The notes beneath the pieces were generated by a model that worked only from the letters and a program-made list of their open reading frames with translations, was not told the origin of the DNA and did not search any database. A program made the translations under genes and the position numbers. 64,000 bases of DNA from an uncultured virus (IMG/VR IMGVR_UViG_3300020576_006994). Its lineage: Duplodnaviria > Heunggongvirae > Uroviricota > Caudoviricetes. The DNA is taken from IMG/VR virus record IMGVR_UViG_3300020576_006994. One strand, given 5' to 3'. Below are positions 7,838-64,000 of the stretch, one piece after another (position 1 is the stretch's first letter; each line of letters opens with the position of its first letter).

Positions 7838-8216
7838 TGGAAATCAGACGTCGGGCTATTTGCTATCACGTAAGCCAAGTGAGGATATGGGATGTTTTGT
7901 TCGAACGAGATTGGGTGGAGCTTGAGGCCGGTGTTACTGGTCCACTAGAAGAGGGCATTTACTTTATGCTACATGGAATGAGCTCCATCTCTAATTGCAT
8001 GCAAGAGACAAGACCGCTATGGCCACGCTGAAAAGGGAGGCAGGTGGGATCCGGATGGTAAAAATCTGGGACACGCTGCTAAACAGTCAATGGCAAGGAG
8101 TGGCTCACGATGCAACTAGCACAATCCTTTTTCATCTTTATAATGAAAACAGACGAATTTTTGACCATTTAAAAGCATTATCTGCAGGCGAGCTCAGACA
8201 GCAACCTCTGCCCTGA
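7834..8216 (+). CDS. Two small hypothetical ORFs (7834-8031 and about 7995-8216)
   Basis: Translationally coupled to the VWA gene; both contain a V(R/K)IWD(V/T)L...W pattern. Confidence 0.45.
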
Positions 8217-9060
8217 TTGTAGGGTGCGGATCATAACCCTAAAGAACTAGATGCTCCATCTTAATGAGATCAATGTCTTGGGGGCAGTCCGGCGACAAAC
8301 AAAGAGTCGGCTCTGACTTAAGTTCACGAGACAGCATCTCTCTGCATTGCTCAATGTGATTTGAGTAAATATGCGCATCGCCAAGCACATGAATGAACTT
8401 ACCAGGTTTTGCCCCAACTGCATGAGCTATCATGATTAGCAACAGTGAATAGGAGGCGATATTAAACGGCACACCAAGAAATACGTCCCCTGATCTTTGG
8501 TACATCTTGAGATCAATGCAGTCTCCACGCTTATAAAGCTGGAAAGACATATGGCACGGAGTGAGCTACATCTTATCAAGATCCTGGACCTGCCATGAAT
8601 CTACAACAATTCGTCTACTGTCTGGGCTGTTTTTGAGTAGATCAATTGCTTCTGCCAGCTGATCGACGTGAGTCTCAATAAACTGCTCTTCGTGGCGAAA
8701 GCCACTTCGTCCTAAAACCGGCACCAGGCTCTTAACGAACCTAGATGCCCGCCTCCATTGCTTGCTGTAAATAGGGCCGAGGTCGCCATCCGGTTTTGCC
8801 CATTCATTCCAGATTGTAGATCCCATGGCCAACAAATCATTGTTGTTCGTGGACCCAGAGATCATCCAAAGAAGTTCTGCTGCCATCGACTTAAATGGCA
8901 CGCGCTTTGCCGTTAACAGTGGGAATGACTGCGATAAATCAAAAACCATTTGCGGAGCGTCAAATACAGAGATTGTACCGACGCCAGTTCGGTCTTTTTT
9001 TTCGATTCCGTTCGCCAAAACATATCTGACTAAATCAAGGTACTGGTAAGTTTGGGTCAT
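8194..9060 (-). CDS. thyA: Thymidylate synthase (288 aa; TAG at 8566 and 8239)
   Basis: KDRTGVGT, FPLLT, ELLW, GDLGPIY, PDSRR, DKM*LTPCH (catalytic Cys), YQRSGDVFLGVPFN, GDAHIY, and the C-terminus L*GYDPHPTIRAEVAV-TGA. Confidence 0.95.
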
Positions 9061-9124
9061 GGCTTCCTTAAGGGAGTGAGCACTCCCCATAAAATATTGA
9101 TGAAAGGCCGGGCATCAGTGTGTG

Positions 9125-9661
9125 TCATTTGTTTCTTAGGTATGATGTCATTCCATACCAATCTTCATAAGAAAAATTATCTTTTTTAGATTCATTGCAA
9201 CGCCAACAACAAACAACGCAATTATCAGTGCTGTATCCTAATTTGTTGTTTTTTCTATCTAAATTATAGCTAGATCCGTTTTGATTTAAATTATGTTCAG
9301 CCCAAAAAACAGACTCGTTGCAATAGTGACAATTTTTAATTTTAGTAAATTCTAAAAAATTTTCAAAAGATAAAACGGTTTGCTTGCCTTCTCTCTTGGC
9401 TCTATAACAGAAGGTAGTATATAGCGCCCTAAAGGGCTCTTTTCTGTTTTTTTGTCCTCTTAATAACGCTGCTGTTTTATCTGCACAGTTTCTGCATTTT
9501 CCAGAAACTTTTTTAATATCAGACTTTCTTAAATGAATTTCTTCTCCACAAGAACATAAGTAAACAAAAACAGTTTCTCGTTTTTGGTACTTTCCTTTTT
9601 GTAAGTTTTTTCTTACATATTTATATGTCCTAATAGGGTCTTTAAACTCCACAGACCCCAC
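9125..9661 (-). CDS. HNH-like homing endonuclease between nrdJ and thyA
   Basis: CSCG...CRNC, CHYC and LDRKNNKLGYSTDNCVVCCWRCN motifs; visibly AT-richer than its neighbours. Confidence 0.8.
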   Translation of the reverse strand: MGSVEFKDPIRTYKYVRKNLQKGKYQKRETVFVYLCSCGEEIHLRKSDIKKVSGKCRNCADKTAALLRGQKNRKEPFRALYTTFCYRAKREGKQTVLSFENFLEFTKIKNCHYCNESVFWAEHNLNQNGSSYNLDRKNNKLGYSTDNCVVCCWRCNESKKDNFSYEDWYGMTSYLRNK

Positions 9662-11267
9662 CTACGCACTCTGCCTCATATTCCTCAAAAACAGTTCCTT
9701 CTTTATTTAGAGCTTCTTTTAGGTCTACTCTAACTAATGGCTGACCTTGACGGCAGCCGTCTGGATATACAGTAAATCCACGCAGTCGTTTTGCATATTT
9801 AAGCAATGCGTCTGCATTAGTCTTTACGGTGCTGTCGTTGTTAGTCTCAGATCCCCAAGCAGGCATGTTACATGTCGAGGAGATGGCCATGTCGACATAT
9901 TGCTGAACGTCAGCTTGAAACTTAACTCTATCCTTAAACGAAATATCATAGGAGTCGATGATCGCTTCAGCCTTGACGCCCTTCTCTAGAAGACGTTTAA
10001 CCTATCCATCCACAACATACTGATACATCCATTTACCGTCCTTGTAGTAACGTCGCTTGTAAGCCTTACAAAACAGAGGCTCAATTCCTGTCGTGGTTTC
10101 GGCGATAATTCCAATTGTTCCCGTAGGAGCGATCTATCTTACACCCTTAGGAACCGCAACGCCTAGGCGCTTAGCTCCGATATATGCTGCCGAGTCAGAC
10201 TCGCGCTCATATGTAGCCAGCCACTTGTGAAGCTCTGGAACGCACTGATATTTATGGCCGCGAATCATTAGCCACTCGTGCATTCCGCCCAATCCAAGAC
10301 CAATTCTGTTGTTCTTTGCACCGACTTCTTTTACTTTATCATTTGGTACGTCGCTGTATATGCCGCCACAAAGAAGAAAAAGTGTTGAGAATTTTACAAC
10401 CTCTGCAAACTCCTCTTTAGTATCACAGCGATTCATCCAGACAGTTCCGAGGTTGCATTTATCTGAATCATCCTCGCTCACTACCTCACAGCACTAGTTA
10501 CGAAGAGATTCGGCGTCTTTTCTAAAATTGAACGACATACCCGGCTCTGCTGTGGAGAACGCCTGTGCGCAATTATCTAGCCAAACCTTCATTGCCTTTT
10601 GATGGTCTGGGTGATCTTCGTTTTCAATAGCAATAAAAAAATTAGTGTCGTAGATTACAGAGATGTTGGTTAACTCCATCGGCAGGCGAAAATTAAAGTC
10701 CTTCTCTTTCATTGCCTTGAGCTCTGGCGAGTGGTCTTTCTAGTGTATAAATTCGTGAACATCTTGGTGAGACCAATTAAGTCCTGCCCAAATCTAAGAT
10801 CGGCGCTGACCTCCCTGCATTACATGACGACCTGATTCATTCACCATCTCCATAAGAGAGATTGGCCCTGTACAAAAGCCGCCCGTTCGCTTGATCTGTG
10901 CGCCCTTGGGTCGGATATTTGAATAATCAACTCCAATTCCACCGCCAGTGAGCAGCTACGATGTAGATCGTTGCATTAATGATGCCCAGTCTTCACGAGT
11001 ATCCTCTGCGCGATATAAGAAGCAGTTATTTACTTGGTGAAAGGATCTTCCGGCAGAGTACAAGTATCGGCCCCCAGGGATAAACTTCCTTTCTTTCATG
11101 AACTTTAAAATCTTTGCTTTTTCTTTTGAGTCAAGCAGTTGACCACACACGGCCTGAACCACACGCTCGCACGTATCGGCCCAGGTCTCTGTCTGATTCA
11201 TTGAATATTTCTGCAAAAAGATGTCGTGGGCGAACTTATTACCGAATACGTCAAACTTAGAAGTCAC
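9642..11267 (-). CDS. nrdJ: Class II (B12-dependent) ribonucleotide reductase, 541 aa, 6 TAG
   Basis: One frame joins four ORF-track pieces: FIPGGRYL, NNCF, TGGGIGVDYS, QGGQRRS*IW, LRN*CCE, CNLG, R*IAPTGTI, TTGIEP, GFTVYPDG and C-terminal CVGGVCGV. TAG at 10956, 10794, 10740, 10494, 10134 and 10002. Confidence 0.93.
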
Positions 11268-12755: not shown

Positions 12756-13864
12756 TTATTCATTGTACGGAAAATTCCACAAAGAGTCAAGCACGAGGCT
12801 GAGGATCAGAAGCGCTGGATTGTTGTCCCCTACAACCGAACCCTGCACGCCGTCTTTAACGATCCTAAATACATCGATGTTTATGTCGACAAGCCCCATG
12901 CAGAGCCTGCCATGAATATCCCTGGTCATCATTTGATGAATTTGTTGATAAACCTGCACTCACTCGCCCCTTATTGTTTGAGAGACGTGCTGCTCGAGAC
13001 CTTGGATTTCTCTTTGCACTGGCTCATAGAGATACCTAAATAACACATTAATGTCGTATACGACGTTTTTGTCGACCAATGAAAAATAATGCGGCTACGC
13101 CCAACGGTACTGCATCTCTCTTATTTGGATCCGCTTTTTCATTTGCCGCCACCAATCTCTTCTACAATCATGAATTTAATATATTCTGTGCCAGCCGACA
13201 CCTGCTTGCTAAGGTCTCTGCGCAGGCGCCATTTGATTTTAGGTGAATAAAATGACCACAACGAATTAGGGATGAGGTCGTCATGATGTCGGTCGAGTGG
13301 CTTATATTTTTTCATGATTCCCATAACTCAATGCAAAGCGTGCGCATGACGCGATACACATCATACATTTCATGTTTGCGCTCTATGCCATTTGTAAGAA
13401 CAGCACTGAGCGGATTCGTAAGGTCGAAGAGCTGTCTGCTGATTTTTATGTATACACCCTTATGCTTTTTCATTTTTCACCTCTAAGTTCCATCCAAACA
13501 TTGAGGCCAACGTTACTGTCTTTCTTAGAGAGTCCATCTAAGAGCTCATTCTCGACGTAGGTTCGAGCCTTGCCAAGCATCTTATTTCCGACTTCGCTTT
13601 TTAGTCTAGGCCGAACTACGATACTAAGATATCCTTTAATCTGCTTACGCTTTTTCATCCCTCAAGCTCCGCTAAAATCTGCTCTTCAAGAGTATAGAGC
13701 AAAAAGTTTAAATGGGACCTTAACCCATGCCTAAGTTCTTTAATAAGAGCTCTATCTAATGGCACCATCAGGTCCTCAAGAAGCTGGCTTTCGATATTGT
13801 TCCACAGCATCTGGCTGATCTGCTCATGCTTCATCGCCCACCTTAAGATTCTCTTTAGGGCCAT
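12756..13864 (-). CDS. Array of about 6 coupled small ORFs (50-70 aa, MKK[HRY]-type starts)
   Basis: MKHEQI, MKKRKQI (13470-13658), MKKHKGV, MKKYKPL and MKKRIQI are chained by ATGA or short overlaps; several end in ELxG-like tails. Confidence 0.55.
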
Positions 13865-14087
13865 AAAATAGGTATGGTCTGCCGTCCTTCACTTCAAAAT
13901 ACAAAACTGGATTTTTGTTGTCGGCAGTGTATGTCTCAATGTGATTCGGATAGTGTGCGTTCAGGTAGCCAAGGTTAAGGTGAAGCCAGTCCGACCACTG
14001 AAGATCGTGGCCATCCATCGCCTCCTGGATAAGGGGCTCCATTTCTAATAGAATTTCGCCTAATGGGCGGACTTTCTTTTTGCTCAT
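13824..14087 (-). CDS. Hypothetical protein (87 aa)
   Basis: ATG-initiated, protein-like composition, overlaps the next ORF. Confidence 0.55.
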   Translation of the reverse strand: MSKKKVRPLGEILLEMEPLIQEAMDGHDLQWSDWLHLNLGYLNAHYPNHIETYTADNKNPVLYFEVKDGRPYLFYGPKENLKVGDEA

Positions 14088-14142
14088 TGTGATAGCTTAT
14101 GTCAGTTTTAGCGGTGGCGCAAGAATTTTTTGAAGATTTTAC

Positions 14143-14171
14143 TTGACAGAGGGTTTGGATTTGGATATAGT
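14143..14171 (+). promoter_or_regulatory. Sigma70-type promoter of the HNH gene
   Basis: TTGACA-17 bp-TATAGT. Confidence 0.75.
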
Positions 14172-14187
14172 GAGGATAGAGGAGAGT

Positions 14188-15204
14188 ATGTAGCATTTTT
14201 GTACAAATTGCAAAGAAACGAAGGAGTCTGAGCTCTTTTATAAGTTGAAGAGCGGGAAGCCGTATTCCCATTGCAAGCCATGCCACAGGGACATTATGCG
14301 TAAGGTTAAGGCGGCTGAGATGAGCCGTGATGGTGCAGAGAAGGTTCGGGAGCGGCGACGGGAGCAATGGGCAAAACACCATCCAAAAATGCCGAGGCGA
14401 CATCATGCCGAGCCAATACTAAAAATTCCGCCGAAACCACGGAAAAGGCGCCCTTCAAAAAGGAAAATCGCGCAGGCGTTGACGGTACATGTTCATGCGC
14501 CAGTCGATGACTTTATTATTTGCCGTAAATGCTTTACGTACAAGGGTGGCAATCAATTTCCTCAAGAGCGGAACAGAGATGGATCGACGAGATTTAAATA
14601 TCAGTGTATTGATTGCTACAACAAATATAGACGGCAAAAATGGGAGAGCGTAAAAGCAGCAGCCGGTGACGAATACCTGTCCATTCTTGCCACTAAAGCC
14701 GAGAAAAACAGGGGGTGGAAGCAGAGAAACCGACAAAGGCACCTTGAGTCTAGACGAAAGTGGGCCGAAAGAATCCATGGTGATCCAGAGCTGAGAGAGG
14801 CGTTTTTACAGAAAAAGCGTGATGCAATTAAAACCGAAAAATACAGGACTCACACAAAAAATAAAAGAAAAAATGACATTCATTTTCGTCTATCAAGCCA
14901 ACTAAGGAAGCGCTTACTGAAGGCTCTAAAGGGTAATGCAAAAAGGGGCTCCGCCATCAATGATCTTGGCTGCTCAATAAGCTTCCTAAAGGGACACCTT
15001 GAGTCTCAGTTTTATGACTGTCCGCGCACTGGCGCCAAGATGACTTGGGAAAATCATGGGAAAACTGGCTGGCATATAGATCACATCCTGGAATTCAAAA
15101 ATGTAGACCTCAGCGATCCTGAGCAATTCAAAAAGGTTGTGCATTATACCAACTTGAGGCCGCTCTGGTATTTTGAAAATCTTGCACGTAATAGAAAATC
15201 TTGA
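14188..15204 (+). CDS. Zinc-ribbon + HNH homing endonuclease (338 aa; TAG at codon 2)
   Basis: GAGGAGAG RBS, then ATG TAG CAT TTT TGT ACA AAT TGC (M*HFCTNC...HCKPC). Second ribbon CRKC...CIDC; C-terminal MTWENHG...WHIDHI...HYTNLRPLW...EN. Confidence 0.85.
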
Positions 15205-15212
15205 AATAGAAG

Positions 15213-15241
15213 TTGACGTGATAGAAAAAGACTGTTAATCT
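15213..15241 (+). promoter_or_regulatory. Sigma70-type promoter of the suppressor tRNA
   Basis: TTGACG-17 bp-TAATCT with a TG extended -10; predicted start about 15248. Confidence 0.6.
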
Positions 15242-15247
15242 GATTTT

Positions 15248-15323
15248 GGGTCGCGGGTGTGAGTAGGAGCACGACTGTCTCTAAAACAGTAGGACTGAAT
15301 GCAAGTTTTCAGGCGATCCACCA
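15248..15323 (+). tRNA. Amber-decoding tRNA (anticodon CUA) with alanine identity elements
   Basis: 76-nt cloverleaf: acceptor GGGTCGC/GCGATCC (G1-C72, G2-C71, G3:U70), discriminator A, encoded CCA; D stem GTGT/GCAC; anticodon stem ACTGT/ACAGT with loop CT-CTA-AA (CTA at 15281-15283); T stem CTGAA/TTCAG. Confidence 0.92.
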
Positions 15324-15360
15324 TTCTTCAATGTTTTCAACAACTTAGGAGAAAGACGAC

Positions 15361-16044
15361 ATGCAACAGACTAGCCAACAAAAGCCCTTCGTTGTCGTCA
15401 CAAAATCTTTTGGCCAACTTGTGCTTGCCTCTCCTAAGTCGTTTGACGACATCACCCTGGCTAGAGAGTTGGCCAAGCACCTAACCAAGACGCACGGCAA
15501 AGAACACTTTTCAATGCATTATCTCTATATCGATGCACTTAACGACGAAAGCTTTGATCCCACATCGCCAAGGCAGGAAGACTGGCGAGACGATGGTTGA
15601 GGCGTTCGTCGTCTTCGTCTGCTTCGCTGGATCTGAGTGCCAAAAACCGCTCGAGGCCTACTATGCCCACTCCGCACCGGCACGCCAAGCAATCGCCGAC
15701 ATCGACTCCTTTCGAAAAAAGAACGTAATAGGCGACAAATCCTTAGCCTACCTCACCCCATTCTTTCTACTTGCATCCAAAGGCAAAATCGGCTTACACT
15801 TATCTAGTTCGTCTGAGTTAATAATTGAACCAAAAGAGGAAAGGTTCGTCGTTCAATGGACATGGTAAAGCGTACAAATTTAGTGATCACGTATCAAATA
15901 AACGGCGCACTTTTTGCTAAGCACAAGATCCAATTTCAATCTAGCATATGGAATAATATGTGGAATCTAACAGACAATCATCTTTTTCATTTATTAAAGC
16001 TTCAGCTTATGCTTAGCATTCGACATGAATTGTACAGCCAATGA
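15361..16044 (+). CDS. Three small hypothetical ORFs (15361-15600, about 15593-15868, about 15856-16044)
   Basis: AGGAGA RBS before 15361; overlapping starts and stops; TAG-free. Confidence 0.5.
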
Positions 16045-16289
16045 AAAAGCATAAGCAAATTAGGGGTCAGCTTGGGGGTCAGCTTTGGAGTCAGCTTGGG
16101 AATCAGCTTGAGAATCAGCTTGGGGATCAGCGTAGTAATCAGCTTGTTGGTCAGCTTAGTAATCAGCTTGGGGATCAGCTTTGGGGTCAACTTAGGGATC
16201 AGCTTGTTGGTCAACTTAGGGATCAGCTTTGGGATCAGCTTGGGAATCAGCTTGGGGATCAGCTTGGGAAAGAGTTGAGGGGTGGATGA
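16041..16289 (+). CDS. QLxx tetrapeptide-repeat mini-protein, copy 3 (82 aa)
   Basis: Same conserved head, 12-bp repeats and GAGTTGAGGGGTGGATGA tail. Confidence 0.7.
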   Translation: MKKHKQIRGQLGGQLWSQLGNQLENQLGDQRSNQLVGQLSNQLGDQLWGQLRDQLVGQLRDQLWDQLGNQLGDQLGKELRGG

Positions 16290-17976
16290 AAAAGCATAGG
16301 CAATATCGGCACTGCTGGAATGGAACGAGTCGCATATACAGCTCACTTAGAGCAAGCATGCCGGAATATGATGTCGCAAGAGGGCCTGTTAGCTACATGC
16401 TTTTCATTAGAATAGTGAACGCTACTAGAGCAGGCTCAGTGCGGGATGTGGGTTTTTTACTTAATAAGGAGCTTAAGCAGTCATGAAAAAGTATAAAGAG
16501 CTCGTAGTTTTATTTCAAAGTAATCTTGCGGTTCAGCTTGGGAAGGGACTGAGCGATCAGCTTTGGGGTCAGCTTTGGGGTCAGCTGAGAGTTAATCTTT
16601 GGAGACAGCTTAAGGTTGAGATTTCTAACCAACTTCAGAGTGAATTGAGTGGAGAATGATTAAACACAAGCAAATAGCCCACTTTCTTTCATTTAAGATG
16701 CAGGATATCATGTGGAATCAATTTATTTGGCCGACTCCAAGCTCCATTATTAGCCATGCATTGCAAGGAACATGGACAGAGTTAAAGGCTAGCGGGCTAG
16801 AGGCGGCCTTGAAGTCGGAACTTGGGCAGGAGACGTAATGTGATTTTTTCAAAAAAAAGAGCGCAGATTATATGGCAGACGAGATTGATTGGAGACTGTC
16901 TGTAGGCGAACTTGTCGGGAATCAGCGACATCACTCTGATCTACTTGATCGGTGCCATTAATGGCCAGCTAAGAGAGTCACTTCGGCCTACAGAAGAAAT
17001 ATTGATGGATGAAATTAATCAGTCGTGTGGGGCCAGGCAGCAATGAAAAAGAAAGGCGAGCTCCGGCTATTCTCCTTGTCTGATAAGCTTCATTATAGCA
17101 TCGGACGTCAAGTTGATGACAGGCTTAGGCTGAAAATTATAGACGCGCTATGGAACAAGGGCGGAATATGGGATACACTTAGATCGAATCTTGAGTTTCG
17201 CGTCAGGGAGCATTTAAGAGATGAAAGAGCGTAAACTAATTACGGCTCACGCAACGGCGGTTTTGGGCTGCTTAAGAGATGGACTTTATGACAATCTCGG
17301 ACACGATCTATTTACGCACCTAAAAATTTATCTTGTAAACGACATCAATTACGGTCTTAGGTGGCATATTATGGCCGAATTGGATGGTCGATGAAAAAGC
17401 ACAAGCAGACTCACAATGACCTTGGATTGGTGGTTCACAGAACGCTGATGTGGAGTATGGTTCCGTTTATTCCAAAGAAGAGCTGGGGCTATCTAAGAGG
17501 TCAAGTTGTTGGAGATTTATCGCGAAAAGCTGCTAAGTGTCTTCTGTTTCAGCTGGAGGAAAGGTGAGGCAACAATTGAATTTGCAGGGCATGTACGTTG
17601 ATCTACTAAGATCCCAACTCAAGGACTCAGTCTCAGAGCAGATCGCGTATACAATAGGGTGGTCGCTTGGGAAGGGGATGAGGGATGAGATATGGGGCTA
17701 TGTTGGTGCAATTCTAAGTGATGAATTGATGGGAATATGAAAAGGCATCTACCGCTAAAAATACCTGACATTGCATCAAGTGACCACATGCAGTACATGG
17801 CTCAGTTTTTGTACAAAATGATCGATTTTGAAAATCCAAATTCAGTCATAATGGGGCACGGAATCCCAAGTAAAATACGTGGAGGAGCGGTCGAAAACCA
17901 TCCGGCTTTTGGTTTATATAGAGCACTGGTTAGGGAGATTAGATCAGCTATCTCCGACGATCTCTTCGTAAATTAA
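16286..17976 (+). CDS. Array of about 9 coupled small ORFs (MKKHRQ, MKKYKE, MIKHKQI, MKKKGE, MKERK, MKKHKQT, MRQQL, MKRHL)
   Basis: 55-80 aa ORFs mostly linked by ATGA/GTGA overlaps; 16483-16659 retains QLWGQLWGQLR. Confidence 0.55.
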
Positions 17977-18353
17977 GTTCTGTACATTATCTGATTCAAA
18001 ATCATAGCCTTCAGCCACAATCTCAAGGTACATGAGGTCCCATAAATCTTGATCCATTTGCAACCACATCTGCTCTCTGAGTTGATGGCGGACAATCATA
18101 AATAAGAAAATGTGCATTGGTTCACGCTTTTTCAATTGTTCTCCAGGTACCCAATAAGGAACCTATCGAGATTTTCGTGTTTACCAGAAAGAACCAGTAG
18201 AATGTACGCTTTTACGTAGATATTGAAATCTACGCTATTGAGCGATTTATTGATCGCAAGTCGTCGAATACTTGCGTCGGTGAGCTTACGTCTCTTCTGA
18301 TGTAATGTCGTCATATAGTAGCGAATCAAGCCTCGCTGATTCAAAGTACTCAA
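17944..18353 (-). CDS. Two small hypothetical ORFs (17944-18135 MKKREP..., 18132-18353)
   Basis: Overlapping start and stop; the first resembles the MKK small-ORF family (HQLREQMW...DLWD). Confidence 0.45.
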
Positions 18354-18465
18354 ACAAAAACATCAGGCTAAGCCTCAACTAGGCATCGTCACTTAGATGT
18401 TTGTAGATCTGCTCCTGTAGGCTTAAGAACATGTGCTCTGAGTGTTTTGGTAATAGATTCTTCAT

Positions 18466-18494
18466 AAAAAAAGGCCAGTCATTTCTGACCAGCC
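18466..18494 (-). terminator. Intrinsic terminator after the tail tube gene
   Basis: GGCTGGTCA-GAAA-TGACTGGCC hairpin followed by T7. Confidence 0.75.
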
Positions 18495-18524
18495 CAATCC
18501 ATAAGCTTGTTTAAAAGATTAGAA

Positions 18525-18989: not shown

Positions 18990-19002
18990 TTATGTCTCCT
19001 TA

Positions 19003-21813
19003 TTAACCTTGAGCCGAGCTAGAGGATTTAACGCCTTCAACTGTGAGCGTAATAGGAATAAAGCGGATTGGACTCTGAATAATCGCACTCACGCCAACTT
19101 CCATAACACTTCCGCTGATAGACACAGAAATGCTCTTCCATCCAGAAACATACTGATCTGTTCCGACGATGTATTTAAGCGACAGGAACTCAGCCATCTT
19201 TCCGCGAATAAAGCTTTCTGCGTTTGCATTTGTAACGTCAGCGGTTGACTCGCCAACAAACGCACGCTTAAGTGACTCAGCAAGACTGAGGGCCATAAGG
19301 TCAGCAACGTAAACGACGTTCAGTGAGTTATACACTACGTTATTGTCAATGCCGTAAGTCGTTTGATCTGTGAGGAATGTGAATCCGCCAGTCTCTTGAC
19401 GCTGAATTGGCATCAAGCCTGCAAGGATTGCATCTTCACAGTCAGATACGTTTTCGTCATCGAAGCTGCCATCAGCATGAACTGCGCCAGAGCAAGCAAT
19501 CGACTTATTGAAGATCGCCTTGTACCCACCAGCTGCCTGCATGCCGGCTGCTTTAACGGATCCCATCCACGGCTGGAACTGATTAATGTCGCCATTCGAA
19601 TCAAGATCAAAAACATCTTGGAATGTATGAGCGATACGGTAGTTTGCCATGTTGAGGGCTGAGTCTTTGGCTTGCTGGAATGTTCCACGCTTAGAAACAA
19701 CGCCTACACGGTGACGCTTAACTTTAGCGGTAGACATTGCAATTACGTGAGCACGTACAGCTGCATTCACTGCATCAACAGTGTATGTTGATGTCGGCTC
19801 AGTTTCGTCATCGGCAATGTCATCAGCTGCATCTTGCGATACAAGCGGAACAACAAAATTGCAACGAACTGAAGCAAGAGCGTCGATAGCCTGTGCGAGC
19901 TGAAGCCCAGACGATCCACCCTTATCGCCACCAGAAAGGAAGGCATAGGAGTTATCTTCCGGAAGACCAGCTGTAGCCGTTGCATCATAAGAAACCAGCG
20001 AGTTACTAGCCAGACTTCCGTTGCCAAGAGTGAGATCGTAAAGATCGCGCTTGATTCGTCCAGGGCGATTGCTGGCTGAACAGATCGAAACTGTACACTG
20101 ATCGAGAACCGATGGGTTACGCTGACCGTCAAGTGATGAGCCGACGGCTGCTGAGTACCCTACGTTCTGATTGATCTTTGTTACGAGATCGGCGATTGTA
20201 GAGATCTTCGAGAGGTCAAGGTCGAGGTTTGCGCCAAGGCCGCCTGTTACCGAAGTCTGCAGACGGAGAACGCCTGAAACTTCACCAACAGTAGCCGTTG
20301 CAGTTGTACCTGCATAGCCAAGTTGAAGAGCAACTTGTCCACCAACAGTGATTGACGACTCCGATTGACCAAGCTTTACGCTAATTGTCTTGCGGAGTTC
20401 CGCAGACGAAGTCAATAGGCTGCCAAGGAACGTAACTGCAGAATCAACTGCGAGTTGTTTAAACATCGTATTGACATTTACAGTTCCGGCATTATCTTTA
20501 ATCTCAAGAGCTTTACCAACGCCCTTAATCTGACGATCAAGGACTTGAATGTTAGATGCGCCAGAGATCGCTGCAGCTGCTACCGCAACAGGGCTGCCGT
20601 TTGAAAGGCGGCTCATCTTGATGTATGCTGAGGTCGTCGTATTCAAGACTTCTGTAAGTTGATACCAACCAACGTTAGCCGAACCAGCACCCTGGTAAGG
20701 AGAGCCTGAAGGGATGTAAGCGATGTCACCAACCTGTGGGCGATTTGCAAAAACCTGACCAGAAGCAAGGGTTGCTGTGAGTGCCGATCCTACAACCGAA
20801 ACAGTGATGTTCTGACCAGTGAGGCCAGAAAGGACGCTGCGGTCAACTCCACTCATGTTATCGATCTTGATGCTAGAGAAGCAAACAAGGTCGTTAGCCG
20901 GGGTTGCAGAGAAGGCAACCGGAGCTACTGCTAGAGGAGCGCCTGCTGTGATTTTCTTTGCAGTTACTTCAGCCAAAGCTGTTGTGTTGCTTACCGCAGT
21001 TACAAGGTACCAGCCAACGTTTTCAGCCGAGCCACCTTCGATAACCGAACCAGCTGGAACGCGAATAACGTCGCCGGCCTGGGGTGTAACTGTAAATACG
21101 TCTGGAGTAGCGAGCTTAAACTTAACTACTTGACCAGAAACAACCTGGAGCTGGAGAGTGTCAGAGACAGTCAATGCTGATACGAAAGCCCGGTCAACTC
21201 CACCAACTGCATTGATCTTAGAAAGACCAGTAAGTGCCGTAGCCAGAGCTGCAGGTGATGTATCTGCGGAAATAGCCAAGGTTTGCTGCGCTTCACCGTT
21301 TACACGGATAGCGAGCGATGCAGAAGAAGCTGACGGAACATACGAAAAGCTTGATGTGGTGGGAGCGGCCTCTGATTGAGCAGTCGAAACCGCCTCAGAG
21401 ATAGAGTTTCCAAGAGCGCCACCACGCTTTGCCTGGAATGTGCCGTGACTGTCTTGAGTAGTCAGCGACGCTTTAGTTGAGTCGTTTGATTTGATAAGAA
21501 TGATGCGGTTCGGTGACCCTTGGATTCGAGTCGATGCACTTGGAGCGACGATTCCACGGTATGCATCTACAAGACGGCCTGAACCGAACTTAGAGATAAC
21601 GCGACCGATATCGCCGGGACCAAAAGACTGGCTTGATGGCTTAATGCCGTCAGCTTTGTCTTGTTGCCAAGACGGACCTTCGTCAGCTTCACCGACCAGA
21701 GCGATTACGCCAGAAAGCGCAACGCCAGACGGCTGTGATGCGACTACCACATCAACAGATGAATCCGGGATAATTAGGACTGACCCTGAGGCCGTCGTAA
21801 AAGTCTGAGCCAT
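19003..21813 (-). CDS. Contractile tail sheath protein (936 aa)
   Basis: N-terminal VIALVGEADEGP...KFGSGRLVDA; LSGGDKG; C-terminal FLTDQTTY...FVGE...PIRFIPITL sheath patterns; TAG-free. Confidence 0.9.
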   Translation of the reverse strand: MAQTFTTASGSVLIIPDSSVDVVVASQPSGVALSGVIALVGEADEGPSWQQDKADGIKPSSQSFGPGDIGRVISKFGSGRLVDAYRGIVAPSASTRIQGSPNRIILIKSNDSTKASLTTQDSHGTFQAKRGGALGNSISEAVSTAQSEAAPTTSSFSYVPSASSASLAIRVNGEAQQTLAISADTSPAALATALTGLSKINAVGGVDRAFVSALTVSDTLQLQVVSGQVVKFKLATPDVFTVTPQAGDVIRVPAGSVIEGGSAENVGWYLVTAVSNTTALAEVTAKKITAGAPLAVAPVAFSATPANDLVCFSSIKIDNMSGVDRSVLSGLTGQNITVSVVGSALTATLASGQVFANRPQVGDIAYIPSGSPYQGAGSANVGWYQLTEVLNTTTSAYIKMSRLSNGSPVAVAAAAISGASNIQVLDRQIKGVGKALEIKDNAGTVNVNTMFKQLAVDSAVTFLGSLLTSSAELRKTISVKLGQSESSITVGGQVALQLGYAGTTATATVGEVSGVLRLQTSVTGGLGANLDLDLSKISTIADLVTKINQNVGYSAAVGSSLDGQRNPSVLDQCTVSICSASNRPGRIKRDLYDLTLGNGSLASNSLVSYDATATAGLPEDNSYAFLSGGDKGGSSGLQLAQAIDALASVRCNFVVPLVSQDAADDIADDETEPTSTYTVDAVNAAVRAHVIAMSTAKVKRHRVGVVSKRGTFQQAKDSALNMANYRIAHTFQDVFDLDSNGDINQFQPWMGSVKAAGMQAAGGYKAIFNKSIACSGAVHADGSFDDENVSDCEDAILAGLMPIQRQETGGFTFLTDQTTYGIDNNVVYNSLNVVYVADLMALSLAESLKRAFVGESTADVTNANAESFIRGKMAEFLSLKYIVGTDQYVSGWKSISVSISGSVMEVGVSAIIQSPIRFIPITLTVEGVKSSSSAQG

Positions 21814-21835
21814 ATTTACACCTCTAAAAAACTTA

Positions 21836-21854: not shown

Positions 21855-21858
21855 CAGC

Positions 21859-47324: not shown

Positions 47325-48716
47325 TCAGGGTAAAGTATTATCTACGAGTGCCGAGAAGCGGGGAAGTGCAACTTTCAATGCACAGAACCGATACCACGCG
47401 CGTGGAGTGCTGAGATCGACGCGAGCCAAATCTACACTCTTAAACGGCGACATCTCGGCGATTTCTGTTCCACGAAGGTCCAGAGCAAAGCCAGTGATGG
47501 CGAACGGCAAGCGGTTGTTCAGGTCGTTGAACACAGTTGTAGCTGCGCCCGAGTTCTTAACGCGACCGATCAGGGCTTTGCGTGTGCTGCCAGCCTGTGA
47601 ACGATAAACGTTGAAATAACGAGCAACTACACCAGCTGCGGGAGTGATTGTCAGGTTAACCTGGTTACCGCTAGCTGCGATTGTAACCGCAGAAGTAGCC
47701 GACTCAGGTCCTTCACCGCGATCACCAACTGCAGTTACGCTGTACTGGTACACTTCGTTGATGAGCAGCGAAGTTGTGCTAGCAGCCTGCGCGTTAGCGA
47801 AAGTCGGTGCATTCGGAGTGCCAACTCGAGCACGGGCAGCTGAAGTCTTTGCAGACAAGAAGCGGCTCGATTCGATTGACATAACGCCGTCAGCAACGAA
47901 CTGCTCTTTCAGAGAAGCGCCTGTAGCTTTCTGGGGCGAACCAGCAAGTACGATACGCTCTTTGTTGAAAGAGATTTTGTTGTATGCCGAGTGAGTGAGA
48001 GGATCGATGTAGATCTTCTCGGGCTGACCGTTACGCATTTGCGCCTGAGAATATACATCCTCAATGGTGCTCTGCGAGAGAACGCCAGCTTGGTTGATAG
48101 CAACCGAGTTGTCGCCACCGTACTCAGACATCATCAGATCCTTAGTAGAATCTTCAAAGTCCGAAGAGCGGATTTGTGGGTCGAGACCCATCATGCCAGC
48201 TTCGTCAGCCGACATAGCGAGCGGGTTACCATCAAAAACACCTGCGTTTGAATACATCGCTTTACCACGGAAAAGGTGGAATTCGATATCCATTGCAAGC
48301 TTGATAGCGGCATCAGCAGCCAAGCGATCTTCTGGTTTAACACCGTCGAAAGTCTCAACGAGCTCCGACTGAAGTGTGTGACGGCGAGTATGAACATAGT
48401 ACGCCATCGGAACTACCGCACGAACGATAGTAGATGTTTCGTCTTGTCCAACGCCACCCTCAAGGGCAGCCGATCCACCGTTTACACCGTAGTCAAGCTG
48501 ACGGTTAAACTGAACGAGTGTCGACTTAACAGGAACGACTTTGAAAAGCTTTTGAAGCTTAATCTTGTCGTCGCTGATTGTCGCAACGTTCATAATTGGG
48601 CTCAGATCTTCTGTCTGAAGGGCAGAGCCTTGTGTCAAAGATCCAGGAGCAGCGTTATATCCGCCTGCTTCCAGGGCCTTTTTGAGTTCTTCAAATTTCT
48701 GGGTAATAGCGTCCAC
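47325..48716 (-). CDS. Major capsid protein (463 aa)
   Basis: ELKKALEAG...GSALQTEDL N-terminus and DIEFHLFRG resemble SPO1/Twort-type capsid proteins. Position after protease and scaffold; TAG-free; AAGGAG RBS and a downstream terminator. Confidence 0.85.
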   Translation of the reverse strand: MDAITQKFEELKKALEAGGYNAAPGSLTQGSALQTEDLSPIMNVATISDDKIKLQKLFKVVPVKSTLVQFNRQLDYGVNGGSAALEGGVGQDETSTIVRAVVPMAYYVHTRRHTLQSELVETFDGVKPEDRLAADAAIKLAMDIEFHLFRGKAMYSNAGVFDGNPLAMSADEAGMMGLDPQIRSSDFEDSTKDLMMSEYGGDNSVAINQAGVLSQSTIEDVYSQAQMRNGQPEKIYIDPLTHSAYNKISFNKERIVLAGSPQKATGASLKEQFVADGVMSIESSRFLSAKTSAARARVGTPNAPTFANAQAASTTSLLINEVYQYSVTAVGDRGEGPESATSAVTIAASGNQVNLTITPAAGVVARYFNVYRSQAGSTRKALIGRVKNSGAATTVFNDLNNRLPFAITGFALDLRGTEIAEMSPFKSVDLARVDLSTPRAWYRFCALKVALPRFSALVDNTLP

Positions 48717-57558: not shown

Positions 57559-59394
57559 TTAAATGTCCCAGTAAAAACCGCCTTTTTTCGAGGACTTAGT
57601 CACTTTATTGCCACCCAAATCGACGATGGTTTTTTGGATTTCATCTTTAAGCCAAACGCCCTGTTCATCGCTTGTGTAAGTTTTACCAACAGACGTATCC
57701 TGAATGGGCACGGCTGAGACGTGAACCTCGCCTCTAAGCTTCCATCGATTCTGTGCAACGTAAGAAAGAGCATCGTGACTATCGTCGTAAGTCTTCTAAA
57801 CTTCTTCCGTTAGTTTTCCATCACTAGATTTTTTGAAATGATATTTTTCAAAGTTGTCAACAAGAGACTGCGTGTTGCCTTCAAGACCAAAGAGCTTAGT
57901 GTCGCCGTAAGGTGGGGACATCTTGTATCGGATGAATGCATGTCCGGCGCTAACGTCTTTTTTGAAAATAGCTCCGACTCTCACCTATCTGCCGATCATT
58001 CCATTGGTAGACGGATCTTCTGGATCGCAGTAAATAATGGTAAAATCATAAATGTTATGCAAACTCTTAACGAGGTCTACTTTTTGCGGTGGCTCAAGGC
58101 CACTGACCTCCACAGACCTCATTACGTAGGCATTGCCTCTGGCATCCTCGTAGACGATAACGATGGCAGTTGGGTGAGTGTAGCCGTGGTCAAGTCCTGC
58201 GTACCGCTTAACTCCTATCTTCTTCATCTGATCAATAAGGACTTGTTCTGAGATCTACGTTCCTGGATCTTCACCCATGAAGATAGTCAGCATCTCTCTT
58301 GGAGTCTTAATGAACTTTGTTCTGTCAAACCTCGGATAAACAAGGTCATCTGCAGAGGGTTGCATAGACATCGACTGAGACAAAAACCAATCATAATTCG
58401 ATTGTTTAAAGTTCGATATTGTGGCTTGAATCGGCCTGAGAGCTTTACATTTAGAGGTTTGCTTCTTGGCATCGCCTGCGCACACCGCTCTAAGTGGGCA
58501 CTCAATGCATTTCTCTTTGGCGATAACTCGCTCGTACCTTATTTGCTGTTCTGGCTCCAAAGCCAAGTAATCGTCTTTAAGGAGCGCTTTATTTTCCTAT
58601 ACCGATACAAACATCTCCAAATCTTGAGTTCCAGATCGACTATCTGGACACCTCTGCGTGTTCTCAAACACGGTCCAGAATTTGAATTTGGCTCCAGTTC
58701 GCTCTCTTTCATCGTATTCTTTTTCAATTACCGTATGTCGACCTTTTCTTGACGAAATACCGACTTTAACCCAAGGAAGCCCCTCCTCTGTATAAGAGGG
58801 AACTCCGGCAATGTCTGGATAGGCGGCAACCTTGTTGGGAGCAAGGCTTCCGAGCTCATCAATTGTTACAATTGGTTGGTGAGCCCCTTGAACTGACTAG
58901 GCTGTGAGCGCAAGCACTTCAATGCTTGATTCTTTTCCATTTACGCTCAAGTTCGTAATGGACATCTTAGGCTCTTCTTTAAGATGCTCTGCTATATACG
59001 GCCTAGAGACGAACTTCTTAAAGTACACGTACTATCGATTTGCCTGATCCTCGGTTCCGCCGAAGTGAACAACGCCACGGCCAAAATGAAGCGGCATTAG
59101 GATTTGAATAACAGCACAGGAAAGTGTTTTTTGCGAAGATCGGCCTGCGATATAAAAATGAGATTCAGGCTCGTCCTGGTTTGTCTACCTTAAGCAAAAA
59201 TCATAAACTTCCCACACCATATCCAGTGGATTTGACGTAGAAAATCTAGACACAGTACAGTCCTAAAGGTCCACCTCTAGAAATGTCTTGCACCACTGTC
59301 GAAGATGCTATTTATTCTTAAGCCTCTGAAGAAGCAATCGACGCATTATCTCGTCTTTGTTGCCCTCGAGAAGCATATCTTGATTATTGCTCAT
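57559..59394 (-). CDS. terL: Terminase large subunit (611 aa)
   Basis: Walker A IAGRSSQKT, Walker B IVTIDE, VYPRFD, AGLDHGYTHP, YCDPE and DDSHDALSY, all in one frame through TAG. Confidence 0.9.
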
Positions 59395-59971: not shown

Positions 59972-60365
59972 TTTGAATCTCTTCGTCAAAGATAACCTTG
60001 ACCGACTAATCCTTCCACAGAAGGTTTCTTGACCACTGAACTAACAAATCCTTGGCTTTTTGCTTTGCATCCTACCGCTTCCACGGCGGCATATCAATTA
60101 GGGCTTGGATGTAGTTAGTCTTTACAATTCCAGTTCCTGACTTGAACCGAAACCTGTCTTTTGTCATTATCTTAAAGATGACCGTTTTTTGGTCAGGAAT
60201 AACCTCAGCAACGCCGCCGAGTGAGTACTCGGAACAAGCTACGGTATAGCACTTAAGCTGATGAGCTATAGAGTCATGCAGCATTCCATATTGGAGAAGC
60301 AATAGCTTACCTAAAAGGAGCTGATCGCTTAAGACGTCTTCATTGCCTCTTGAAGGGTTTTCCAC
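59961..60365 (-). CDS. Hypothetical protein (134 aa, 2 TAG)
   Basis: Frame continues past the TAG at 60072 to the TGA at 59961. Confidence 0.55.
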
Positions 60366-61312
60366 ACTGCCTCTTTATCTTCTAGCTGCTAGACTTCGTA
60401 TACATATTCTTTTATAGCCTAATCCAGCCCACCAATGGCTTCGATATCGATAGATTTTGAAGAAAATTCAAAATTTTCCTTAAACTGAAAAGTTACTCCA
60501 GAAATTCCTGAATAAGCCAACTCGACCTAAGCCCTCTGACTCTTTGTTCCTGTAAACTTTACAATCAATCGATCACCAGGCTTCATGCCTGGCGGTATAA
60601 CTGGATCAGATTCTGGATTGGCATCCACTGACCAAAAGCACTTAACGAAGGGTGAAGTGCTAACTGAATTAATTACCATCATCTCTTTTGTATCGAAAAC
60701 GAATAATCTTTTGTCGTGATTCTATTCAGACGAAATGAGCTGCCTGGGTGTACCTGGATACCAGATCTTATCCTAAATAGTCTACTGAGTGTGGATGTGC
60801 CCAGAGATTATTTTTTCGTACTTTATTCCAGAAAAATCAAACCCGTCTGGAGCATAAAACCCATTCTCAAACTTAGCGCCATCGAAGGTTTGATGGCAAA
60901 AGAGAATCTTACCTGACTTAAGCTTTGATAAAAACTGGTCTTCGTCTTTATGAAAAGAAAGGGCATGGACTCCGTCTTCAATCTCAAAAAGCGAATTTGG
61001 GTTAATCACTGTTAGGTTTTTAATGCCATACAGGGCTTGATCTACCTAATTAACAAACTAATTAGATGGAGAAATGCCGTCGTGGTTCCCAACCAAGACA
61101 TAGACCGGAAGCTGCGCCTAAAGCTAGGACATGTTCTCCTGAACAACAGACAAGACCTCTTGTCGAACTACCTAATGTGTATGGAACAGGTCACCAAGAA
61201 ACAAAATCTAGTCGGCCCCATGCTAGATCTTAGCTGCTTCACTAAAAATGGCTTTGGTGTCTTGAATATTGTTGACCTGAGCATGCAGGTCTCCGACTAT
61301 CTAGATTTTCAT
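60329..61312 (-). CDS. Metallophosphoesterase (SbcD/Mre11-like nuclease), 327 aa, 14 TAG
   Basis: MKI*IVGDLH, D*ILFLGDLFH, LVGNHD, LFCHQTF, ISGHIH and WYPGTP. Confidence 0.9.
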
Positions 61313-61602
61313 CCCTCAGATGATACCATTACTAGTGCCTGCTTTGGAACCAGTATGAACTTTTTACCGTCATCTTCGTAAATTTTACGTGCGTGAGCTG
61401 TGCCATCAAGCTCCGCCAGAACGAAAGCTACATCACCCTATTTATAATCTTCAGAGTCAAACACAATCTTAGTTTTAACTAGATCGTTACGGAGTCGATC
61501 TGTTGTCTAGAACCGAGAAGTGGTCGCCTCGGGTTTTACCTTGTGCTCCAAAACTAGTGGCTCTAAAGCCACCAGTCCATTAAGCGTCTTTGTAGATTTC
61601 AT
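61309..61602 (-). CDS. GroES-like (co-chaperonin fold) protein, 97 aa, 2 TAG
   Basis: TLNGLVALEP...YK*GDVAFV...DGKKFILVPKQALVMV is reminiscent of Cpn10; weak similarity. Confidence 0.45.
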
Positions 61603-62638
61603 ATGAAAGCTCTCCTTTTAAAAGCAAAATCTTTCTCTGCAGGAGGCTAAGCTCCCTCTATGCATTTAATATCTTATTCCTAATGTCGGATTCAATTGCC
61701 AAGTCTTCAGGCGAAGCTGCTCGATACTAAATATCAGGCTCTAAATCTTCATCTGAAATATGCTCATGCCGCAACGAATCTGATCCAGCACCGTAAAAAG
61801 CCCGCTCGTCAAGCGACTTATACGCTCCGGGATTTCTGATCTTAGTTACAACCTCAAAAAACGCTTCATCAGTAAGATCAAGCTATTCTTGAAGCTGTTC
61901 ATCTGTCTATTCTGGATTTTCTTCGAGAAACCTTACGGCCTGAAAAGCCTTGTCTGAAACCTTAGAGCTGTACGTCAGGTGACTAGATGCTTCGTGGTAG
62001 TATTCCTGAAGGTACTTGTTCATCCACCCGTTTGCCATAGAGATGAACGCGTCTTTTTTCTATTGATCAGGAACGTACTTATCGACAGCACTGAACAGCC
62101 CAAGGTTGGCCGTCTATACAAAATCTTCCATAGAGGCTCTAGCTCCTAGCTATGGATTCTTTTTTACCATGGAGTAAAATACCTTCTATCTGTGCATAGC
62201 CAAATATAGAGATGCCGAAACGATTTCCTGCCTCTTGCTGGAGATATCAGCAAGAATCTGAGCAAGCTCTGACTTGTTTGATGAATCTACAACTCTTGAC
62301 ATCTAGAACTTACAGAAGTTAAAGTTTACTGGAGCCTTATATAGCTCTTTTGAGTTCATTCTTTGAATGTTTTTTGAAACAGGTCCAAACTTTTCGTCTC
62401 GTATCCTGAAAAAGATGCTTGATTTACCCTGATAGTCTTTGTCTTGATTTACTGTTCTGCAAAAAGTATCATAGATCTACTTCCCAGCCAAACTCTTCCG
62501 AAGAGTTTTCTAGAAGAGATCTTCTAGTTTCATCAAGTCCTTAAACATCTTGAGCATCTTAGTTGAATCAATTGGCGCAGACCCAATCTCGCTCTTAAGC
62601 TCATTTGCGTATGAATGCAAAAGGTCTTTCTCGCTCAC
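61580..62638 (-). CDS. Phage sigma70-family factor lacking region 4.2 (352 aa, 11 TAG; absent from the ORF track)
   Basis: Region 2: RQEIVSASLYLAMHR*KVFY...MEDFV*TANLGLFSAVDKY...FISMANGWM. Region 3: KSLDE, SPED. Ends shortly after LSLLQRKILLL. Confidence 0.75.
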
Positions 62639-64000
62639 TGAACCCCCATCTTAGACGAATGCACGTGCTGCACCGGCCCTACCTACTGGTAGTATTTAGC
62701 TCGCTCATCTGCATGTCTCTTTAAGAGCGGTACATTTGTGACCCTAAAATCAACTATCTTACAAGAAGTCTTGCCGGTCTCTTTGTGAACCCTAGTACTT
62801 CTTCCAATTGCACCCTGCTTAACCTTTGTTCCGGCCTTATTTGCCTGCCAGTTTATCGTAAGACGAACTGGTAGGAAATTCGTTCCAGTGCTTACAGCAC
62901 TCGTGCCCACAACGCATAGAATTTTGCCTTGATTGAAATCATCGCATATAGAAGTAACATCAGAGTCGCCACAGGCATAAGCATACTCAACCTGAAGGCG
63001 TTTTTTAAGGAGCTCTTCTTGACCATGTTCATCTACCAGCACCAAGACTGGCATTCCTTTTTTTACCTATTGATTAACCATCTGCGAAATAATCTTCGCA
63101 ATTCCATCATTTTTGTAAAAATGCTCTTGGTTCATCTTTACAACGTTATCTTTATTCTAGTACTTTGACTTAGATTCAATGTCAATAACCATCGTATCAA
63201 TCTTTGCCAGATACCCCTCAGCTTGCGCTTGCTGTATAGAATATTCAAAAACCTGTTTTCCAATGATCGCCTCAAGCATCAAGTCCCGTCCGTCGTTTCG
63301 CTCTTGAGTTGCCGAAACAAACCATCGATACGGACAATGAGCTAAAAGACCATGGCAAACCTTCTCAAGCATCTACTAGGGAAGAGAATGACTCTCGTCG
63401 GCAATAAATACATCGTATTGCTTAAATTCCTCTGTAGCCTCTCCCTCAACTAAAGACAGGCTCTTTCCAACTGAAATCAAAAACTGCTTGCCAACTTGCT
63501 TCTTGCCGGCCCCGAACATGCCAACGCGCTCTTTTCCAAGAAGATGACATGCATCATTATAGATCTGCTCGGCAATGGACTTTGAAGGTGTACAAACCAC
63601 ACAACGAAGTCCGGTCTTTTTAAGTAGACTAATAATTACATTAGTTTTTCCAGCTCCGGTTGCAATCTCGACGTGGGAATGTCGATTCTAGAGAAGTGCA
63701 TCAAGTGCCTACTGCTGGTAGGGCCTTAAAGAAAACTCCGGAATATTCTTCCATGGAATCAACTTGAACTCAGGGGCAGCAACTTCATCGATAACGCTAG
63801 AAATAAGATTGTGGCGCCTAAGAAGATCAGCCATGCCCTAATAAGTCCAGAATCCATTTTCATCCTCCATCAAAAGAGTCTTCTTGGATTCAGCGGTCAA
63901 CCTATCAATCTCTTTCTAAACCCACTCTTCGCCGAACCTCATAGTGTAATACGGATTCTTCTTCAAGCCTTTTAGTTGGTGAAGAACCGATTTGTCCTGA
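62635..64000 (-). CDS. Superfamily 2 helicase (5' end outside the window)
   Basis: LRPYQQ*A, IATGAGKT, IADESH, VSAT, STGTN and QGAIGRSTR; TGA overlaps the sigma GTG. Confidence 0.9.

Follow-up and report, generated by a model that had tools for sequence, protein, structure and literature searches.

Surveys of recoded phages, as far as their accessible text goes, report the reassignment of TAG to glutamine and of TGA to tryptophan, and annotation tools apply translation table 15 (10.1101/2021.08.26.457843; PMC11210395; PMC9523058); in the available portion of the study by Borges et al., these two changes are the only ones given for phages whose code differs from that of the host (10.1101/2021.08.26.457843). 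In a cell-free screen in Escherichia coli extract, Seki et al. (2025) found tRNA_CUA-151, from a metagenomic phage, to be the sole alanine inserter among 29 tRNAs, which the authors, in the accessible part of their text, call "an unusual UAG->Ala reassignment" whose "biological relevance remains unclear" (10.1101/2025.10.30.685624). On the side of tRNA identity, the accessible part of the work of Mukai et al. presents the G3:U70 wobble pair as the main element recognised by alanyl-tRNA synthetase (AlaRS), describes allo-tRNAs, natural bacterial tRNAs with G3:U70 and non-alanine anticodons, and records that G3:U70 tRNAs given a CUA anticodon translate amber codons in E. coli, alanine being among the inserted residues (PMC5389517). 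A tRNA-CCG with G3:U70, proposed to convert CGG to alanine in bacteria, appears in the available part of another report (10.64898/2026.04.02.715157), and in both sources, to that extent, G3:U70 figures as a general mark of alanine tRNAs (PMC5389517; 10.64898/2026.04.02.715157). The present analysis concerns a stretch of 64,000 nucleotides from an uncultured virus of the Caudoviricetes (IMG/VR record IMGVR_UViG_3300020576_006994), here called the window, and a gene at positions 15248-15323 for a tRNA with the anticodon CUA. The gene sequences and the tRNA suggest, with a probability of roughly 0.8, that this tRNA receives alanine from the host enzyme and decodes UAG as alanine.

The window is phage DNA of 45% G+C and encodes a capsid protein, a scaffold-like protein, a portal, a large terminase, a sheath, a sigma-like protein, an SF2 helicase, an SbcD-like phosphoesterase, a ribonucleotide reductase and a thymidylate synthase. 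The standard code fragments its minus-strand genes, which become long frames once TAG is read as a sense codon; 180 in-frame TAG were counted in 28 of 36 genes (15,702 codons), and TAA (19 genes) and TGA (17 genes) are the only terminators. In the SbcD-like phosphoesterase, 14 TAG stand against 17 GCN alanine codons. Eight genes are free of TAG, namely those for the capsid, scaffold-like, sheath and tube-like proteins, a 693-amino-acid protein, an AAA ATPase, its VWA partner and a small protein, and the lack of TAG in abundant virion proteins suggests that its reading is slow, costly or imprecise. The base after TAG is A at a frequency of 0.37 and T at 0.11, compared with 0.30 and 0.17 for all codons (p = 0.044), a bias too weak to build on.

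The residue encoded by TAG was assessed by a codon-by-column likelihood test on weighted homolog columns of the reductase, the helicase and the phosphoesterase (119 homologs each) and of thymidylate synthase (150 representatives); the near-identical database proteins P0001, P0121 and P0241, which had been translated at their source with TAG as glutamine, were dropped before counting. Over 30 TAG columns in these four genes, alanine reached +14.8 nats, serine -4.2 and glutamine -29.1. Alanine was the top residue at TAG in each of the four genes and won 1975 of 2000 column bootstraps, and the same test applied to sense codons as a control was correct for 60 of 61, the single miss being CGG, which had 2 columns. 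Where one residue has a share of at least 0.6, 10 of 12 TAG columns are alanine. Five of the six TAG sites of the reductase are alanine in 85-119 of 120 homologs, the sixth being a Leu/Val/Ile column, and residue 175 of thymidylate synthase, also TAG, is an alanine column with a weighted share of 0.68 among the 150 representatives. A preliminary description of this DNA had claimed a protein-level signal for TAG as alanine, which the likelihood test and its control bear out.

Translation table 15 would instead have TAG read as glutamine, the tRNA being charged by glutaminyl-tRNA synthetase (GlnRS) through its CUA anticodon. Glutamine was best in none of the four genes and has a share of 0.00 in the 10 conserved alanine columns, and the TAG sites thus do not align with glutamine as that table implies, although one conserved phosphoesterase column is glutamine (share 0.78) and gene-calling pipelines already put Q at TAG in near-identical proteins. 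P0001 and P0121, near-identical copies of the phage reductase and helicase, have Q at every TAG site (6 and 9, respectively), and P0241 is a full-length phosphoesterase relative with 89% identity; the Q in P0001 and P0121 evidently results from translation by table 15 at the source and is, on present evidence, the wrong residue. Glutamine does find support in the cell-free screen, in which 28 of the 29 phage tRNA-CUA inserted glutamine (or the near-isobaric lysine) in E. coli extract, according to the accessible part of that text (10.1101/2025.10.30.685624). It is also favoured by codon exchanges among close relatives, where TAG swaps with CAG/CAA at 3 sites and with GAG/GAA at 2 sites, as would be expected if it meant glutamine, and never swaps with GCN, which counts against alanine; among near-identical strains, two codon swaps involve TAG (TAG/GAG and CAG/TAG). 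However, TAG is one mutation away from both CAG and GAG irrespective of its meaning, and the swap with CAG is a single transition, expected whatever TAG encodes. As the single-step sources of TAG are CAG, GAG, AAG, TCG, TTG, TGG and TAY, the codon would be expected to enter either tolerant sites or, via the serine codon TCG, alanine sites. The latter path (GCG to TCG to TAG) would fit the frequency of serine in alanine columns and bears on serine as a possible meaning of TAG: serine is the second-best residue in the test, the second in most of the alanine TAG columns and the winner of 23 of the 2000 bootstraps, and it lies 19 nats under alanine.

Several properties of the same columns weigh against an exclusive reading as alanine. 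The TAG signal amounts to 0.49 nats per column, about half of the 0.9-1.2 nats of GCN columns; two conserved TAG columns are not alanine (a Leu column with a share of 0.73 and the phosphoesterase Gln column); and in many TAG columns the residue varies and is polar (E, K, Q, N, S). Such a pattern could arise from mixed decoding, in which TAG would be read mostly as alanine with a sizeable glutamine or lysine share due to mischarging and the TAG sites would be statistical. The codon is also missing from the virion proteins made in greatest quantity, as though its use carried a cost or lacked precision, which likewise agrees with mixed decoding. Nevertheless, the conserved TAG columns are alanine in 10 of 12 cases, and variable polar columns are expected if TAG arises from GAG, CAG, AAG and TCG at tolerant sites; mixed decoding is therefore considered unlikely.

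The tRNA gene has 7/4/5/5 stems, a 7-base anticodon loop and 21 of 21 standard pairs, and folding the sequence alone gives exactly this cloverleaf as the minimum-free-energy (MFE) structure (-24 kcal/mol and an ensemble share of 0.63), with z = -1.6 for 76 nucleotides and -2.3 for 73 nucleotides. The Rfam family RF00005 matches positions 15248-15320 along model positions 1-71 of 71 with 32.3 bits (gathering score 29), at E = 7e-5 when 601 bases were searched and 6.9e-4 when 6 kb were. The acceptor stem is formed by 15248-15254 paired with 15313-15319 (G1:C72, G2:C71, G3:U70, U4:A69, C5:G68, G6:C67 and C7:G66), and every feature that had been listed for this tRNA, that is, the first three of these pairs, A73, the encoded CCA and the anticodon CTA, is present in the sequence. 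AlaRS reads the acceptor end (G3:U70, G2:C71, A73) and not the anticodon, G2:C71 and A73 being secondary elements; glutamine identity of the E. coli type depends instead on U1:A72 and G73. A minor AlaRS element in E. coli is G20 of the D loop; this loop ends in GGA without a clear G20 in the window tRNA. The three alanine marks of the acceptor end are present both in the window tRNA and in a second tRNA-CUA from a syntenic relative, whose D loop has GGGA, and both have G1:C72 and A73 in the positions of the glutamine set, so that, with the protein columns also considered, glutamine is regarded as very improbable. Both tRNAs have a 4-base variable region and no long variable arm, which bacterial seryl-tRNA synthetase (SerRS) needs, and serine is likewise given very little credence.

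The specificity of the G3:U70 mark was examined among 40 distinct phage tRNAs called by ARAGORN in the loci compared, most of them from one 177-kb phage (G004; Rfam gives 32 tRNA matches at E<=0.01, and 27 exceed the cut-off), whose reductase is 75% identical to that of the window. G3:U70 was found only in the tRNA-CUA of the syntenic relative and in the sole tRNA-Ala(UGC), which has G1:C72, G2:C71 and A73 too; the other 38 tRNAs lack it, in what is a small sample. The G004 phage has a canonical tRNA-CUA of its own (L058, 1501-1576, plus strand) with U3:A70, U73 and an encoded CCA, and a CUA anticodon therefore does not entail G3:U70; this tRNA is a putative suppressor of different identity. 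The whole-sequence similarity of either alanine-type tRNA-CUA to the 40 phage tRNAs is at background (0.62-0.67) and indicates no isotype.

The second tRNA-CUA was found in L046, part of an 18-kb viral contig that was reached via the upstream endonuclease VII/HNH-type gene and is syntenic with the window between 8.1 and 21.6 kb (82-88% nucleotide identity). It lies between the same conserved flanks, is called by ARAGORN, scores 51.1 bits in Rfam and is canonical (U8, A14, GGG in the D loop and a standard T loop), with CCA not encoded. The two tRNAs were compared by cloverleaf position, MAFFT giving no in-register alignment. The 100-base flanks are identical at 85 and 88 of 100 positions and the tRNA bodies at 31 of 73, and of the 21 pairs 15 have changed on both sides (15 of 15 standard in the window; 14 in L046, with one A-C), including acceptor pairs 4 to 7, all of which have changed on both sides; the tRNA body was therefore replaced rather than slowly mutated. 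The six unchanged pairs are G1:C72, G2:C71, G3:U70, two of the D stem and one of the anticodon stem, and A73 and the loop YU-CUA-AA are common to both tRNAs. What the two bodies have kept is thus the set of marks predicted to be read by AlaRS, together with the putative UAG-reading loop. The retention of G1:C72, G2:C71, G3:U70, A73 and the CUA loop by an unrelated body supports the alanine identity of the window tRNA given in the preliminary description. Seven in-frame TAG codons of L046 coincide with TAG sites of the window, including that at residue 175 of thymidylate synthase, an alanine column. Separately, the reductase of L046 (10105-12018), in the position corresponding to 9642-11267 of the window, is of a different, RTPR-like type, with 1L1L as its best solved match and 27% identity to that of the window, which is an apparent reductase module swap between otherwise 82-88% identical genomes; its four TAG sites correspond to W, E, Q and E in 1L1L, a comparison with one sequence only that is uninformative and lends alanine no support.

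Other properties of the window tRNA count against its being a working alanine decoder. Its Rfam score barely exceeds the cut-off (32.3 versus 29 bits), and in the RF00005 alignment its core is off consensus: G8 and G14 replace U8 and A14, and the T loop, of 8 bases, has UGC for the UUC of the consensus; of the conserved core, U8, A14 and TPsiC in a 7-base T loop are thus missing and the D-loop GG is present. The preliminary description had proposed ARAGORN with isotype models as a check; run on the window at default thresholds, ARAGORN gave no tRNA, and at thresholds of 95, 90, 85 and 80% left 15248-15323 uncalled, probably because the T loop has 8 bases without the usual TPsiC sequence. An Rfam cmscan of the whole window also left the tRNA unlisted, both at the gathering score and at E<=1, which is read as a loss to the speed filter since shorter searches recover it. 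At 80% thresholds ARAGORN made 27 calls inside genes, among them a "cta" call at 44881-44955 that was rejected because its stems are mismatched and it has no Rfam tRNA match at E<=10. The label tRNA-Pyl was also rejected, as ARAGORN applies it to any cta anticodon and the L046 tRNA is an ordinary cloverleaf; no Pyl family occurs among the Pfam matches of the 33 largest reading frames of the window. The same Pfam matches include no synthetase family, and it is to this extent that the earlier claim that no phage synthetase is needed finds agreement.

It follows from these properties that the window tRNA could be a weak or decaying copy. At its strongest, this would make 15248-15323 a poorly functional or dead replacement, with the decoder supplied from outside the 64-kb window or by co-infecting relatives; the contrast with the canonical L046 tRNA at the same locus, the variation of the cassette between strains and the fact that the window is a 64-kb part of a genome, so that another decoder could lie beyond it, all speak for this possibility. 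Yet the 21 pairs are intact and the cloverleaf is dominant, the identity marks, CCA and anticodon loop are preserved, and no second credible tRNA was found in the window (Rfam, ARAGORN) or in the 6 kb around the gene (Rfam). Because the genes carry 180 in-frame TAG, a decoder is indispensable, and a dead copy at this locus is considered quite unlikely.

The variation between strains was followed in public sequencing data. Parts of window positions 14100-16100 are contained in 20 public runs from nine studies, six of which contain at least half of the sampled words; the samples were taken from wastewater, activated sludge, sludge, freshwater, aquatic and river sources. Contigs of four of these runs (two RNA and two DNA libraries) were compared with the locus and match both tRNA flanks with 80-100% likeness, but no contig of the four runs matches or covers 15239-15305, and in one RNA library a contig of 1112 bases runs from 15221 to 15323 across 102 different letters where the window has 101. 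Both results count against the proposed decoder, and the exact window tRNA is therefore strain-specific; the 1112-base contig is consistent with the exchange of one cassette for another of equal size, as seen in L046, and its origin in an RNA library is no proof of transcription.

Searches for further relatives of the locus were largely negative. The nearest record (G001/L045) spans window positions 17127-32481 and L043 spans 47770-63185, both stopping short of the tRNA. In a phage collection, megablast with 12.5 kb of the window gave no match, and blastn with the tRNA gave three chance-level matches (E=8), all within tail genes. Among 40 loci that share the reductase, synteny ends at that gene and no similar tRNA was seen, and G002, a 135-kb record with a 52% relative of the helicase, had no tRNA match. 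Two flank patterns found nothing in metagenome contigs; among viral contigs, the contig of L046 itself was the sole one recovered by a flank pattern, and likewise by a pattern of the L046 tRNA. In genome contigs the L046-tRNA pattern found nothing and the capsid protein had no relative, and hence there is no clue to the host. A 20-base pattern of the window anticodon arm matched only two unrelated phage contigs of about 103 kb. There (L041, 4935-5060, minus strand; L042, 4969-5050, plus strand) the 20-base CUA anticodon arm is part of a cloverleaf-like element adjoining a tRNA-Met; its acceptor and D stems have 6 pairs each, G3:U70 is absent, and neither ARAGORN nor Rfam (E<=0.01) calls it.

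If the window tRNA does read UAG as alanine, its action may be envisaged as follows. The tRNA would be transcribed from a host-type promoter, for which the putative element upstream is a candidate: it stops 6 bases ahead of tRNA base 1 and recurs in L046 as TTGACA-17-TAATCT, whereas a consensus promoter scan found no promoter in 14900-15700. Host AlaRS would then charge it through G3:U70, G2:C71 and A73, ignoring the anticodon, and the charged tRNA would pair with UAG and insert alanine in competition with host release factor 1. Thereby 28 of the 36 examined window genes would be made translatable, the abundant virion proteins being free of TAG. As TAG is most frequent in the helicase, nuclease and sigma-like genes, the tRNA would be needed from the onset of infection. 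The promoter, the expression of the tRNA and its charging by AlaRS are all predictions from the sequence. On a wider scale, it appears fairly probable, if less firmly so than the alanine reading itself, that UAG=Ala is a natural virus code maintained via a small promoter-proximal suppressor-tRNA cassette that is swapped among strains for unrelated bodies, selection holding only G1:C72, G2:C71, G3:U70, A73 and the CUA loop, host RNA polymerase making the tRNA at the start of infection and abundant virion proteins avoiding TAG.

The coordinates of the tRNA gene, its surroundings and the genes discussed are collected in Table 1.

Table 1. Features of the 64-kb window that bear on the reading of TAG
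Feature	Position	Strand	Basis
tRNA gene, anticodon CUA, encoded CCA	15248..15323	+	sequence, Rfam RF00005, MFE cloverleaf
G3 of acceptor stem, wobble partner U70 (15317)	15250	+	sequence, Rfam alignment
U70, wobble partner of G3 (15250)	15317	+	sequence, Rfam alignment
Anticodon CTA, reads UAG; 7-base loop CU-CUA-AA	15281..15283	+	sequence, Rfam alignment, fold
Discriminator A73 (15320), then encoded CCA (15321-15323)	15320..15323	+	sequence
Promoter-like element: TTGACG (15213-15218), 17-base spacer, TAATCT (15236-15241)	15213..15241	+	sequence and L046 alignment
Endonuclease VII / HNH-type endonuclease, upstream neighbour, 1 in-frame TAG	14143..15204	+	PHROGs phrog_1035, 1.5e-11
Small gene downstream of tRNA, 79 amino acids, no family, AGGAG before ATG	15361..15600	+	conserved in L046
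Thymidylate synthase, 2 in-frame TAG	8194..9090	-	family match, homolog columns
Ribonucleotide reductase, 6 in-frame TAG, 5 in alanine columns	9642..11267	-	Pfam PF02867
Tail sheath, TAG-free: 936 amino acids, 115 GCN alanine codons, 0 TAG	19003..21813	-	family match, TAG count
Major capsid protein, TAG-free	47325..48716	-	family match, TAG count
Large terminase, 9 in-frame TAG	57559..59394	-	family match, TAG count
Metallophosphoesterase (SbcD-like), 14 in-frame TAG, densest in window	60329..61312	-	family match, TAG count
Sigma-factor-like gene, 11 in-frame TAG	61580..62638	-	family match, TAG count
SF2 helicase, 9 in-frame TAG	62635..63966	-	family match, homologs

The upstream endonuclease has an L046 ortholog of 79% identity. 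The tRNA locus is flanked by small frames of 53-87 amino acids (13139-14087, minus strand; 16041-17976, plus strand), most of which start with MKK(H/Y/R)K... and which look like one paralogous gene family. A 12-base tandem repeat forms four arrays in the window (4480-4810, 16063-16268, 44437-44785 and 52833-53007) of 13-29 copies, whose consensus units include GGGATCAGCTTG; about 740 bases separate the tRNA from one array downstream of it, and the arrays are shared with L043 and L046 and reach a very high summed contig depth in metagenome runs. The TAG-free AAA_5 ATPase and its partner, a VWA/DUF2201 metallopeptidase-like protein, are encoded as a pair at 5582-7837 on the plus strand, opposite to most genes. 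Three further minus-strand genes contain TAG: one at 26955-28079 with a minimal CRISPR polymerase (mCpol) domain (2.2e-7), one at 39213-42548 for a polyvalent protein of 1111 amino acids with ADP-ribosyltransferase and weak GNAT matches, and one at 45649-47226 with a weak Mom-like match just under the Pfam cut-off.

If UAG is alanine in this lineage, the consequence for annotation would be that its proteins in public collections, translated by table 15 with Q at TAG sites, carry glutamine for alanine at about 1 codon in 90. More generally, the window suggests that the meaning of a recoded stop codon in phages is not fixed and that a handful of bases in the acceptor stem, by recruiting an anticodon-blind synthetase, can determine it. 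As to evolution, no other amino acid is probably as easily captured in this way as alanine, and here the same marks are borne by two tRNA bodies unrelated to each other. The locus would also give a natural context to the lone alanine-inserting phage suppressor of the cell-free screen.

Among known systems, the closest in organisation are the code 15 phages with a Sup-CTA tRNA (crAss-like, Lak and other gut phages), which, as described in the accessible parts of the surveys, also combine many in-frame TAG with a phage tRNA-CUA and have no phage synthetase seen, so that reliance on a host synthetase has been proposed. The window differs from them in that the residue appears to be alanine instead of glutamine and in the alanine acceptor set of its tRNA. 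It also departs from the model of Borges et al., so far as their text was available, in which late and lysis genes are recoded, whereas here the helicase, nuclease and sigma-like genes are richest in TAG and the capsid, scaffold, sheath and tube-like genes have none. In the literature on phage stop-codon recoding, suppressor tRNAs and UAG/TAG-alanine that was searched, no phage genome in a UAG=Ala code was found, and tRNA_CUA-151 was the single relevant precedent. Like tRNA_CUA-151, to judge from the accessible description and not from its sequence, the window tRNA is a phage tRNA-CUA tied to alanine at UAG; that description offers no evidence at the level of the genome, and the present analysis adds the genome side, with TAG sites in alanine columns.

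Transplants of alanine identity by G3:U70 were reportedly achieved by Hou and Schimmel and by McClain and Foss in 1988. In these transplants, as in the natural G3:U70 tRNAs known from partly available reports, alanine acceptance tracks G3:U70 whatever the anticodon or body, and the window and L046 tRNAs, with unrelated bodies and the same first three pairs and A73, look like a natural transplant experiment. Transplants and allo-tRNAs, as far as they are described there, are engineered, or cellular and directed to sense codons or UAA, while the window tRNA would be a phage's own device for UAG throughout its genome. Reassignment of UAG to alanine is known from the mitochondria of some green algae, where codon and amino acid are the same as proposed here; theirs is an organelle code fixed in a lineage, and that of the window would be a virus code differing from the code of the host cell. 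What is new is therefore the residue: a known phenomenon, stop-codon recoding by a phage suppressor tRNA, is here found with alanine as the amino acid that the tRNA probably inserts.

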